Source: a virus
Taxonomy: Duplodnaviria; Heunggongvirae; Uroviricota; Caudoviricetes
Direction: 5' to 3' (one strand)
Virus record (IMG/VR): IMGVR_UViG_2740892230_000009
Coordinates: 1 to 10,690 of that record
Length of the DNA stretch: 10,690 nt
Below, piece after piece: positions 8,120-9,814 of the stretch (positions within the stretch are counted from its first letter, which is position 1; every line of letters starts with the position of its first letter). The translations under genes and the position numbers were made by a program. The notes beneath the pieces were generated by a model. It had not been told where the DNA came from. It saw only the letters and a program-made list of their open reading frames with translations, and did no database searches.

Positions 8120-8581
8120 ATGAGAATACTAGGTGTTAGAGCGGCGCCCAAAGTTACATCTTTTGTTGTATATTGCACTAATGAGTCTGCACTCAAATGT
8201 GTTGATGTTATTAAAATACCTTCGACCTTAGACACACCAGAAAAATTAAAGTATGTGAGAAATAACATCCTCGACATTCTTAATTTATATAATGTTGAAT
8301 TAGCTGCCATACGCGTTACTGAATCAAACTCTGATAATCTTAGCATTGACCGCCTTTATATAGAAGCTGTTATTCAAGAAGCATTTTCAAGCAGTGATGT
8401 AAGAAAATATTACACTATTAGAAAATCTGGCATGAAATCATCATTGAACCTAACAGAGATCGAGTATAAAGAAATATTGAAGTCACACCGCAATATAAAT
8501 GGAATCGATAATTCTGGTTTTACAACTGAAACAAATGAAGCTGTTTTGGCTGCACTATCTGCGGAGGTAAGGGGATGCTAA
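8120..8581 (+). CDS. Hypothetical protein (153 aa), first gene of the AT-rich insert
   Basis: AT-rich coding region; ATG at 8120; 3' end overlaps the kinase start by 7 nt, suggesting co-translation. No family recognised. Confidence 0.6.
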   Translation: MRILGVRAAPKVTSFVVYCTNESALKCVDVIKIPSTLDTPEKLKYVRNNILDILNLYNVELAAIRVTESNSDNLSIDRLYIEAVIQEAFSSSDVRKYYTIRKSGMKSSLNLTEIEYKEILKSHRNINGIDNSGFTTETNEAVLAALSAEVRGC

Positions 8582-9621
8582 CTCCATACAAAAGAGCTGA
8601 TGTAGAATTCGAATGGATTAGTGATCTAGAAGAACAGGGTTGTTTTTCAAAAGTATATCTGGCTCATGACAGACACCTAGCTCATGACTTGGTGATTAAA
8701 GAAATAGAAAAAAAAGAAAACACTAACCACGACGACTACTTTAATGAAGCAAGGCTTCTCTATAAACATGCACATCCAAATATTGTGCAAGTTCAGTATG
8801 CTGCTCAATGTGAGAGCAATATCTATATAGCCATGCCATTTTATCATAATGGTTCGCTAAACCAATTAATGAAAAAAAATAATCTTACAAGCAGGGAGAT
8901 AATACGGTATTCCATTCAATTTTTAAGTGGACTTTATCATATACACTCAAAAGGTCTTATGCATTTTGATATAAAACCTAATAACATTATGATATCAAAC
9001 AGAAATGAGGCCATGCTATCTGACTTTGGATTATCTCAGTTAGTCAATGAGGAATCGAGAGCTGCGCCTGAGTTTGGATATCATTTTCATGTGCCACCGG
9101 AATATTTTTCTTTATCAACAAATGATTATAATTTCACATATGACATATATCAGGCAGGATTAACCATATATAGAATGTGTGTTGGACATGATAATTTTGA
9201 AAGAGAAAGATCTGCATTTAGCACGATTGAACAACTCAGAGAGTCGATAATTAATGGCTGCTATCCATTAAAAGAGTATCCTCCCCATATACATAAAAAA
9301 TTAATAACAATAGTGAACAAATGCATTCATGTAGATCCAAATGAAAGATATCAATCCGTACTAGATGTACTAAACGATCTCTCAGCTATAAGTGATGGCG
9401 TTCTTGACTGGCGTCTACAGATGACGAAACCAACTAACGGCACATGCGAATGGCAAAAAAAGTCTGGGGACGCTATACTGTCTATAGTTTTTGACGCAGA
9501 AAATTCGTCTACTACTGGTTTTCGTTTATACGATGATGGGCGGAAAAGGCGTGCTACGAACTTAACAATATCCTCAGGATGTACCCCTACAAAACTGTAT
9601 AGGTTATTAAAGGATAACTGA
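8575..9621 (+). CDS. stk: Eukaryotic-like (Hanks-type) Ser/Thr protein kinase with C-terminal extension
   Basis: Kinase subdomain motifs in order: Gly-rich loop QGCFSKVY, Lys in VIKEI, catalytic loop HFDIKPNN, DFG in LSDFGLS, PPEY; about 80 extra C-terminal residues; GGAGGT RBS. Symbol given by analogy to the kinase I recall in the Stx phage 933W immunity region. Confidence 0.85.
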   Translation: MLTPYKRADVEFEWISDLEEQGCFSKVYLAHDRHLAHDLVIKEIEKKENTNHDDYFNEARLLYKHAHPNIVQVQYAAQCESNIYIAMPFYHNGSLNQLMKKNNLTSREIIRYSIQFLSGLYHIHSKGLMHFDIKPNNIMISNRNEAMLSDFGLSQLVNEESRAAPEFGYHFHVPPEYFSLSTNDYNFTYDIYQAGLTIYRMCVGHDNFERERSAFSTIEQLRESIINGCYPLKEYPPHIHKKLITIVNKCIHVDPNERYQSVLDVLNDLSAISDGVLDWRLQMTKPTNGTCEWQKKSGDAILSIVFDAENSSTTGFRLYDDGRKRRATNLTISSGCTPTKLYRLLKDN

Positions 9622-9623
9622 TC

Positions 9624-9788
9624 ATGAAAAAGCGCGAGGAAGTAAGCAAGCTGCCTCGCAGACGTGATGCAGCATTAGCGGTTCCCTACAAAAAAGATGA
9701 GTTCATAAGCCCTTCTGATGACAAAAAATTTTCAAAGGCGAAAAGTTTTACATCTACATCTCTAAAAGATAAATACTTTAAAATCTAG
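9624..9788 (+). CDS. Small basic ORF (54 aa) downstream of the kinase
   Basis: ATG 2 nt after the kinase stop, AGGA about 9 nt upstream; MKKREEVSKLPRRRDAALAVPYKK...; stop abuts the terminator. Below the ORF-track size cutoff. Confidence 0.35.
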   Translation: MKKREEVSKLPRRRDAALAVPYKKDEFISPSDDKKFSKAKSFTSTSLKDKYFKI

Positions 9789-9814
9789 CCCGGCCTCAGC
9801 GCCGGGTTTTCTTT
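9789..9814 (+). terminator. Intrinsic terminator ending the cI-to-kinase transcription unit
   Basis: CCCGGC (9789-9794), loop CTCAGC, GCCGGG (9801-9806), then TTTTCTTT (9807-9814). Confidence 0.7.

Follow-up and report, generated by a model that had tools for sequence, protein, structure and literature searches.

Stk of a 933W-type Shiga-toxin prophage and its two partner genes: a probable three-protein phage defence cassette

Downstream of the repressor gene cI, in the place where lambda carries rexAB, the DNA analyzed here (10,690 nucleotides, positions 1 to 10,690 of IMG/VR record IMGVR_UViG_2740892230_000009, hereafter the window) carries a kinase gene tightly packed between two small genes. 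This raises the question of whether the block is a phage exclusion system, and whether the kinase acts alone or with its neighbours. The window was matched to phage 933W (AF125520) at 99.9% nucleotide identity over 2626 bases, with co-linear annotation; phage TL-2011a was 100% identical, and 24B and other relatives of 933W matched at 99.9-100%, again with agreeing annotation. The annotated order in 933W is cI-L0084-L0083-stk-L0081-tM, the 348-aa gene being stk, and the best protein match of its product was identical (100%) across 100% of the length. Both the sequence and the place in the operon (behind cI, ahead of tM and PL) are those of the 933W Stk exclusion kinase. It is likely, taken jointly with the whole explanation developed below, that positions ~8055-9815 constitute the module for Stk exclusion in a Shiga-toxin prophage of the 933W type.

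The central observation, the Stk kinase and phage exclusion, is already known, because the DNA is that of the 933W immunity region and published papers already report Stk. The original prediction had pointed to a 933W kinase gene, stk, reported to exclude another phage, and was correct on this, given the near-identical DNA, the same annotated locus and the reported abortion of HK97; in proposing a candidate exclusion system it was right about the exclusion role and understated how well the kinase was known. In the literature, Stk is described as an active kinase of the eukaryotic-like type, for which tyrosine phosphorylation has been reported; the original work (Tyler & Friedman, 2004; Friedman et al., 2011) is cited for Stk function in PMC3681748, PMC3564112, PMC8008677, PMC6356687 and PMC3430580. 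According to these papers, stk is co-transcribed with cI in lysogens (PMC3564112, PMC3430580), HK97 infection is aborted by Stk (PMC3564112, PMC3681748, PMC8008677), Stk is near-silent in uninfected lysogens and activated upon HK97 infection (PMC3681748), and host cell death via Stk upon infection by a rival phage is the reported outcome. An EHEC virulence read-out was unaffected in an stk mutant (PMC3681748), expression of L0083 ('res') and L0084 in lysogens has been reported (PMC4651098), and lambda is excluded about a million-fold by a 933W lysogen (PMC6989128). The literature searched yielded no description of the partner genes L0083 and L0081, no defence system combining a resolvase-like protein with a kinase, and nothing on the HK97 gene that triggers Stk. 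The trigger is said to be an early HK97 orf, possibly orf41. Exclusion of HK97 by stk alone on a plasmid may also have been reported, in which case the partners would not be strictly required for that phenotype.

Features of the locus are collected in the table. Three tightly packed same-strand reading frames of 153, 348 and 54 aa, followed by an intrinsic terminator, were found at exactly the coordinates first given. L0083 and stk overlap by 7 nt (ATGCTAA), stk and L0081 are separated by 2 nt, and a Shine-Dalgarno-like site lies 5' of each of the three genes. The hairpin coincides with tM of 933W, which is also annotated in 24B. The block lies downstream of cI and before PL, as had been proposed; the prediction overlooked the 113-aa DUF3024 frame that separates cI from the block. 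The GC content of the block was 35.5%, vs. 47.6% for the rest of the window and 45% for cI and L0084, and the lowest value of any other 1669-nt segment was 43.6% when the whole stretch was scanned. The expected AT-richness relative to the flanks was thus confirmed.

Table. Coordinates of the lysogenic operon and the kinase cassette in the window
Feature	Position	Strand	Description
pRM (pM)	~6908-6935	+	lysogenic promoter; coordinates transferred, as for cI, from 933W annotation
cI repressor gene	6943-7650	+	first gene of the operon reading into the cassette; HTH_3 and Peptidase_S24 matches
pRM and cI together	6908..7650	+	
Direct repeat, left copy, 15 nt, TGAAGAGACGTTTGG	7683..7697	+	brackets L0084
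L0084	7711..8052	+	113-aa DUF3024 protein; PADLOC candidate PDC-S43
Direct repeat, right copy, 15 nt	8054..8068	+	brackets L0084; left edge of mobile kinase cassette
L0083 ('res')	8120..8581	+	153 aa; RuvC-fold, remodelled active site; obligate partner upstream of kinase
stk	8575..9621	+	348 aa; Hanks-type non-RD kinase; reported abortive-infection effector
L0081	9624..9788	+	54 aa, basic; third gene of cassette
tM intrinsic terminator	9787..9814	+	hairpin 9787-9808, then T-run; cassette right edge

A kinase-domain match had been predicted for the 348-aa protein, and it was found: Pfam Pkinase was matched at E 2.2e-46 (158.8 bits, cut-off 31.7), with the catalytic residues present. The motifs were in canonical order (K42, E58, H130-x-D132-x-K134-x-x-N137, D150-F-G, P175-E176, D190, R258) and invariant in 42 homologues. 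With a match above the gathering score and the Lys, alpha-C Glu, HxD-x-K-x-x-N, DFG and APE-like motifs, Stk belongs to the Hanks-type kinases, and since its catalytic loop reads HFD, it is a non-RD kinase. Retention of all catalytic motifs suggests that Stk is competent as a kinase. The kinase core spans residues 1-270, and is followed by a conserved C-terminal alpha/beta domain at ~280-348 (an extension of ~75 aa), for which the structure was predicted at high confidence (pLDDT above 94). The original prediction had suggested that this extension could be a sensor.

The 153-aa protein upstream, L0083, is labelled 'RuvC-like Holliday junction resolvase' in PHROGs and RefSeq, and it has a RuvC / RNase H-like fold. 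Its identity to RuvC is 12-15%. By sequence, no significant RuvC match was obtained: L0083 scored 14.2 bits with the Pfam RuvC model (cut-off 22.2), RuvC was not retrieved when PDB sequences were searched with its profile, and hhalign gave E 0.034. The four catalytic carboxylates of RuvC (E. coli D8, E67, D139 and D142, Met-included numbering) are not retained. An invariant arginine, R7, aligns with D8; a second, R65, lies where strand 4 ends, the place occupied by E67 in RuvC, a mapping made by extending the weak profile alignment (E 0.034) by one residue and from strand position in the model. Position 137 is variable (RuvC D139 is not conserved), and E140 is the sole conserved acidic residue of the set. 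The family is acidic to neutral, with a median pI of 5.9 vs. 9.6 for E. coli RuvC, and a role for L0083 as a sensor of DNA junctions is weakened by this near-neutral pI. No fusions were found for the family, since an exhaustive profile search returned almost only stand-alone proteins of ~150 aa; an apparent L0083-kinase fusion, considered as evidence of interaction, was rejected when the 'kinase' cluster mates proved to be plain Stk fragments, a clustering artefact.

The pairing of the two genes was strict. An L0083-type partner lay upstream of the kinase in seven of seven individual look-ups, of 74 genome loci seeded with the partner, 73 had a kinase directly downstream of it (in the remaining one, the contig ends after the partner), and the partner was present in 75/75 assessable kinase-seeded viral loci, where three unrelated kinases had no partner. 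Synteny was thus kept in ~155 loci across phyla, non-phage contexts included, and no stand-alone Stk-family kinase gene was found in the loci surveyed. In the window, the partner directly precedes the kinase on the same strand, the two genes sharing nucleotides, and overlaps of 1-8 nt were found across loci; L0083 and stk are, judging from this gene arrangement, translationally coupled. Pairwise identities of partner and kinase were correlated (r = 0.92). Partner, kinase and small frame diverge together, and in several phyla they move as a unit between prophages, integrative elements and defence islands.

The third gene encodes a strongly basic protein (pI 10.0, net charge +8). Homologues of L0081 were found in Enterobacterales, and a small basic frame of 50-70 aa occupies the slot 3' of the kinase in nearly all clades, including Pseudomonas. 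The small frame was detected by HMM in 66/83 loci with 0 off-position matches, in a test that is partly circular, and the Pseudomonas clade was added by eye. L0081 is under purifying selection as judged from substitution patterns (dN/dS 0.26-0.41 vs. Pragia and Proteus; pN < pS in 66/66 pairs). For homology to the small frames of other clades, a leave-clade-out HMM gave E ~0.16 and jackhmmer clusters stayed separate, so that the link, resting on position, size, charge and a post hoc motif, is not statistically established. L0081 is probably a regulator of the kinase.

Horizontal movement was apparent from a second phage (L113), in which a 97%-identical cassette lies behind a different cI, in a different immunity region; homology to the window starts at ~8055 and stops just past tM, and is limited to ~8055-9815. 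The idea of an acquired insert was therefore supported by both GC content and the presence of the same cassette behind a different repressor. Elsewhere, the cassette has R-M systems, Abi_2, a retron-like RT, CapH/CapP and integrases among its neighbours; the picture from nearest-neighbour scans was mixed, and suggestive of enrichment in defence islands. As part of the same joint explanation, the AT-rich cassette is likely to have been horizontally acquired and inserted, without a promoter of its own, downstream of cI.

Since the kinase is always paired with the RuvC-fold partner and, in nearly all lineages, with a small basic frame, the locus is probably a three-protein defence system, and the suspicion of an undescribed multi-gene unit was supported by the strict synteny of the 153-aa gene and the near-universal small basic frame across phyla. 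With moderate confidence, 933W Stk exclusion is read as the work of a widespread, previously unrecognised three-protein system. Its members would be a pseudo-RuvC whose former metal site holds two arginines, a non-RD kinase that has a C-terminal domain of its own, and a small, basic, fast-evolving protein. The partners would serve as off-switch and trigger receptor, a nuclease fold having been recruited as a regulatory or sensor subunit of a protein kinase. Under this scheme, the cassette would be transcribed in the lysogen from pRM up to tM, and L0083 (a probable dimer, as RuvC is), Stk and L0081 would form one complex. L0083, L0081 and the C-terminal domain of the kinase would together keep the non-RD kinase off and serve as a receptor that senses the phage trigger. 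Once a phage product, or a molecule induced by the phage, had bound, the kinase would be set free, and mass phosphorylation of host and/or phage proteins may then halt the cell ahead of progeny production. The sensor and inhibitor roles are ones that we infer by analogy.

The simplest alternative is that Stk is a lone abortive-infection kinase of the PD-T4-6 kind, with L0083 and L0081 as passengers and L0083 a true phage Holliday junction resolvase. PADLOC PD-T4-6 models do match Stk (E 1e-37), PADLOC reports PD-T4-6 in an O157:H7 strain, the resolvase name given by PHROGs and RefSeq reflects a genuine RuvC fold, and the literature mentions Stk only. The synteny and translational coupling across loci, in non-phage contexts too, and the co-divergence of partner and kinase argue against passengers, and there is no PADLOC model for the partner. 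A resolvase is at odds with the replacement of the first two carboxylates by invariant arginines, the sub-threshold Pfam score, the acidic-neutral pI and expression from the lysogenic rather than a lytic operon. This alternative was considered unlikely. An addiction module was given an equally small chance. Here the kinase would be the toxin, L0083 and/or L0081 the antitoxin, and exclusion a by-product of mobile-element stabilisation. The layout resembles type II and tripartite TA loci in that a small upstream gene shares 4-8 nt with the toxin gene, the cassette is always carried by mobile elements, HipA-type kinase toxins offer a precedent, and the kinase is, in the available reports, silent until triggered. 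Against this, the kinase is Hanks-type and not HipA-like, neither partner showed a DNA-binding antitoxin domain, and the phenotype actually described in those reports is HK97 exclusion. Many TA systems act as Abi defences, and so this explanation largely overlaps with the three-protein reading.

It was judged very improbable that the module mainly controls the lysis-lysogeny switch of the prophage, or host physiology and virulence, with defence secondary, in the manner of the Pf prophage kinase-kinase-phosphatase module. A prophage kinase module controlling lysogeny does exist (PMC11341870), the cassette belongs to the cI operon, with expression in lysogens, and elsewhere it often adjoins cI/LexA-like or CapH/CapP-like regulators. 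However, the same cassette is also found in non-prophage settings, next to R-M, Abi_2 and retron-like genes, the block holds no phosphatase gene, and the unaltered virulence read-out of the stk mutant and the inactivity of Stk in uninfected cells, as reported in PMC3681748, point away from regulation as the main role.

Set beside known systems, the three-protein cassette shares its locus, kinase protein and operon order with the 933W Stk system, which in the literature searched is described as the kinase alone, with no discussion of the RuvC-fold partner or the small basic protein. Like lambda RexA/RexB, it follows cI within the pRM transcript, is expressed in the lysogen and stays silent until abortive infection is triggered by a superinfecting phage; RexA/RexB differ in being two genes with a membrane ion channel, compared with a protein kinase and three genes here, and are unrelated in sequence and domains, neither Pfam nor PADLOC having matched one of the four proteins to a Rex family. 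Staphylococcal Stk2 and E. coli PD-T4-6 are likewise Hanks-type kinases acting as abortive-infection effectors, but are described as single genes and differ in the C-terminal domain; the PD-T4-6 HMMs cover only the Stk kinase core (residues 20-276; ~125 bits vs. ~500 for the Stk-family HMM), and such models also match housekeeping PASTA kinases (PMC11514479). HipBST and HipBA also combine a growth-arresting kinase held by small co-encoded proteins with overlapping genes and carriage on mobile elements, but have the HipA fold and non-homologous partners, and the HTH antitoxin has no counterpart here. The best PADLOC match to the Stk kinase domain was the MADS kinase MAD6 (E 6.7e-50); Stk is half its length, scored 122 bits against the NCBIfam cut-off of 460, and had no other mad genes in the window. 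Unlike RuvC resolvases, the L0083 family is always paired with a kinase.

Few prophage kinases have, like Stk, been demonstrated to act in abortive infection, and the literature searched offers no explanation of how Stk is silenced or switched on by HK97; two obligate, co-evolving partners are thus concrete candidates for its control. The labels given by defence-finding tools (single-gene 'PD-T4-6', with the partner as a resolvase) suggest that the locus is annotated incompletely, and a three-gene definition would, if confirmed, extend to sequence clusters (at 50% identity) numbering in the hundreds across several phyla. As the cassette is part of the immunity region in Stx-converting prophages of EHEC, its exclusion spectrum bears on phage-based interventions against such strains.

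L0084 was also considered as a fourth component (Pfam DUF3024, E 2e-31; PADLOC PDC-S43, E 5e-42), and was rejected for its different GC content, its absence from most loci and the direct repeat that brackets it. A DUF3024 gene adjoins the cassette in only 1/83 genome loci and in 33 of the 77 viral loci, and L0084 is absent from L113. The 15-nt repeat has two exact copies in the window, and two matches were obtained in 0/200 shuffles. L0084 is co-transcribed, yet a separate insert outside the kinase cassette.

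The window, in which genes were identified by Pfam matches, is a lambdoid phage immunity and replication region whose plus strand reads leftward, from cI to N. The original prediction placed a same-strand three-gene block in the position of lambda rexAB. Its ORF coordinates and sizes were exact, and the overlap (7 nt between L0083 and stk, followed by a 2-nt gap to L0081) and the terminator were likewise present. The block does lie between cI and the leader, though not directly next to cI: a DUF3024 ORF, overlooked in the prediction, stands between them. Its AT-richness was borne out by calculation: GC was 35.5%, against 45.2% for cI, 45.0% for the 113-aa ORF and 47.6% for the remaining window. 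The minimum elsewhere was 43.6%, with none lower among 130 other equal-length windows.

Features of the immunity and replication region, with window coordinates
Feature	Position	Strand	Size	Remarks
NinB gene	38-586	minus		Pfam; full gene
Second NinB-like ORF	1006-1260	minus		
Lar, DUF7301 genes				Pfam
DnaB-like helicase	2487-4880	minus	797 aa	Pfam; LAGLIDADG-type intein
O, cII, cro		minus		Pfam
cI	6943-7650	plus		followed by four further plus-strand ORFs
Direct repeat	7683-7697; 8054-8068		15 nt	exact
L0084	7711-8052		113 aa	DUF3024
L0083	8120-8581		153 aa	Shine-Dalgarno-like site upstream
stk	8575-9621		348 aa	Shine-Dalgarno-like site
L0081	9624-9788		54 aa	Shine-Dalgarno-like site
Terminator tM	9787-9814			GC-rich hairpin and T-run
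N	10277-10660	plus		
N-runs	1038-1047; 1333-1342; 1652-1661; 2215-2224; 6172-6181		10 N each	

Positions 7651-10276 matched Escherichia phage TL-2011a at 100% identity; at 99.9% they matched both 933W and 24B as well as dozens of further Stx1- and Stx2-converting phages. The 933W record gives the order cI, L0084, L0083, stk, L0081, terminator tM, nutL, N, and the 24B record names L0083 'res, putative Holliday junction resolvase'. Its identity makes this locus the type example of the 933W Stk system, and the 933W kinase named in the original prediction is encoded here. According to mutually consistent citing papers, Stk is a tyrosine kinase of eukaryote-like type, stk and cI share one transcript from the maintenance promoter, uninfected lysogens have little or no Stk activity, and HK97 infection activates Stk and is aborted (PMC3681748, PMC3564112, PMC3430580, PMC8008677, PMC6356687). 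Prior work by others reportedly found Stk active in vitro and necessary for abortive infection. Because Stk activity and HK97 abortion are thus already described, the kinase and its exclusion role were known, and the addition here is the three-gene reading. In 24B lysogens, L0084 and L0083 homologues were tied to the lysogenic state, and L0084 was reported as expressed (PMC4651098). Lambda, too, is excluded by a 933W lysogen, by a factor of about a million and without dependence on cI immunity; hybrids with other immunity regions escape, and the authors make no assignment to Stk (PMC6989128).

Stk matched Pfam Pkinase at 158.8 bits (cut-off 31.7), as had been expected for this ORF. The catalytic motifs, predicted to lie in canonical order, were invariant in 42 homologues, of which the most divergent had 39% identity (K42, E58, H130, D132, K134, N137, D150-F151-G152, P175-E176, D190 and R258). 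The glycine-rich loop is degenerate, and the catalytic loop reads HFD instead of HRD, which makes Stk a non-RD kinase; such kinases are usually independent of activation-loop phosphorylation. We show Stk to be a catalytically intact non-RD enzyme; it also has a private C-terminal domain.

Homologues of L0083 (the partner) and Stk often had identical reported 'longest contig' lengths, and gene neighbourhoods were therefore inspected directly. In 7/7 divergent kinase homologues (from Pragia, Kosakonia, Pseudomonas, Acinetobacter, Elizabethkingia and Vibrio) a 151-155-aa gene lay immediately 5' of the kinase gene and either abutted or overlapped it. The encoded proteins are genuine homologues of L0083 (36-70% identity, 21 invariant positions), and their contexts are mutually unrelated: integrase islands, a prophage tail region, an LlaJI restriction system with ArdA, a type I restriction system, and an Abi_2 gene with a retron-like reverse transcriptase. 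A partner-seeded scan, one genome per species, gave 74 loci across Alpha-, Beta- and Gammaproteobacteria, Bacteroidota, Cyanobacteria, Myxococcota, Acidobacteriota and Clostridium. An Stk-type kinase followed immediately 3' on the same strand in 73/74, the overlap usually being 1-8 nt; the sole exception was a 1146-base contig ending past the partner gene. The reverse, kinase-seeded scan of viral contigs returned 77 family kinases, and the partner lay 5' of all 75 that were assessable; it was absent beside three unrelated kinases caught by the same scan. Partner and kinase pairwise identities were correlated (r = 0.92, 2701 pairs). The suspected multi-gene unit was supported in all three sets of loci, and we show that the kinase is always co-encoded with a pseudo-RuvC protein, the genes being translationally coupled.

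An exhaustive L0083 profile search of 1.84 billion representatives gave 435 clusters; among the 150 listed, nearly all were stand-alone proteins of about 150-175 aa. The exact L0083 sequence (8120-8578) sits in a 90%-identity cluster in which the other members listed are fragments of Stk. None of these proved to be a kinase-L0083 fusion, and the placement looks like a clustering artefact from overlapping genes.

In the available alignments, the invariant R7 of L0083 aligned with the first RuvC catalytic aspartate (RILGVR vs IILGID), and the invariant R65 stands at the end of strand 4, the site of the catalytic glutamate in RuvC. The third catalytic position is variable, E140 alone being acidic family-wide, and the median pI is 5.9 in the family versus 9.6 for E. 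coli RuvC. We conclude that L0083 would be no working resolvase and appears to be a RuvC-derived pseudo-enzyme of remodelled fold, belonging with the kinase as its obligate partner; the RefSeq and PHROGs resolvase label is probably misleading. Speculatively, an anion or phosphate might be bound in a pocket made by the two arginines in what was once the metal site. A role in sensing branched DNA is possible, and is weakened by the near-neutral charge of the family.

Direct homologues of L0081 were found in Enterobacterales only (Pragia, Proteus, Kosakonia, Xenorhabdus). In 61/83 loci, nevertheless, a mostly basic ORF of 50-72 aa had its start no more than about 12 nt from the stop codon of the kinase. 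On alignment these ORFs show two motifs, one Y-x-x-R-S/A-x-L-like with a nearly invariant arginine and the other C-terminal (G/N-Y/F-hydrophobic), and L0081 has both. An HMM built from the same ORFs, and hence partly circular, matched in 66/83 loci, always in the post-kinase slot and at no other position in any frame across the 83. Apparent loss in a Pseudomonas clade was ruled out, since an ORF with the same motifs is present there and shares 29 nt with the end of the kinase gene. Because pN was below pS in 66/66 within-clade pairs and dN/dS was 0.11-0.71 (0.26-0.41 for L0081 against Pragia and Proteus), the small ORFs, L0081 included, are real genes. In jackhmmer the clades stayed separate sequence clusters, and a profile lacking Enterobacterales reached L0081 only at E of about 0.16; the case for putative homology across clades is accordingly one of position, size and charge, together with a post hoc motif (48/62 small ORFs, about 1/62 in shuffles, 4% of other small ORFs). 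In nearly all cases, we show, a small basic protein is encoded alongside the kinase.

The block had also been proposed to be an acquired insert. A viral locus (L113) carries a three-gene copy, 97% identical, directly 3' of a different HTH-S24 repressor; genes for YdaT and O lie upstream and one for RecT downstream, and a DUF3024 gene is absent. Homology with the window begins at about 8055 and ends just past the terminator at about 9815; these are the cassette edges, and the GC drop coincides with them. Acquisition is thereby supported, and the cassette is a mobile unit. Its nearest neighbours elsewhere were heterogeneous (cI/LexA-like repressors, CapH/CapP-like regulators, integrases, transposases, methyltransferases, HipA, housekeeping genes), as expected of a unit inserted into many backgrounds. 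In several genomes (flanks of loci L013-L086) the cassette adjoins CapH/CapP-type (HTH and M78 peptidase) or HTH-S24 repressors, which hints at a frequent link of cassette expression to regulators that respond to DNA damage.

L0084 matched DUF3024 (E 2e-31) and the PADLOC candidate PDC-S43 (E 5e-42). It is a unit separate from the cassette, because a DUF3024 gene adjoins the cassette in 1/83 genome loci (33/77 viral loci), its GC is like that of its flanks, and an exact direct repeat, TGAAGAGACGTTTGG, brackets it (found twice in 0/200 shuffles). Within the lysogenic operon it has the look of a moron, inserted independently. A Proteus penneri prophage (L013, 2836-5669) has a cI-like repressor, DUF3024, partner, kinase and small ORF as in 933W, with proteins merely about 57-70% identical; deep conservation therefore extends beyond the cassette to the lysogenic operon as a whole, with its five-gene order.

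In the mechanism we propose, Stk, L0083 and L0081 would form one complex, in which L0083 and L0081 would keep Stk inactive and act as receivers for a signal from the phage; once released, the kinase would phosphorylate proteins en masse, and the infected cell would be arrested. The cassette would work like staphylococcal Stk2 and E. coli PD-T4-6, and has position and logic, without homology, in common with lambda RexAB. PADLOC PD-T4-6 models match the Stk kinase core only and are loose enough to match housekeeping kinases; PADLOC has no model for L0083, and Stk falls short of the equivalog cut-off for the MADS kinase MAD6. A literature search of limited coverage found no description of a resolvase-like and kinase defence system.

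That the three-gene reading is both true and not yet described seems to us somewhat probable. It is unlikely that Stk acts alone with the adjoining genes as passengers, and we give similarly little credence to the cassette being mainly an addiction module. A main role as regulator of lysogeny or host physiology is very improbable.

Elsewhere in the window, the replication helicase has DnaB N- and C-terminal domains and an insert of about 330 aa with LAGLIDADG/homing-endonuclease signatures, which is an intein inside an Stx-phage DnaB-like helicase. The five N-runs, presumably masked bases, break several ORF translations (XXXX); none falls inside the kinase-cassette region. The NinB gene and the second NinB-like ORF, which enters such a run, have nearly identical N-terminal ~60 aa (LRNEAIRNNAIDAILSLPIDDKSPHEVH...), and the latter could be either a ninB paralogue in tandem or a partial duplicate.
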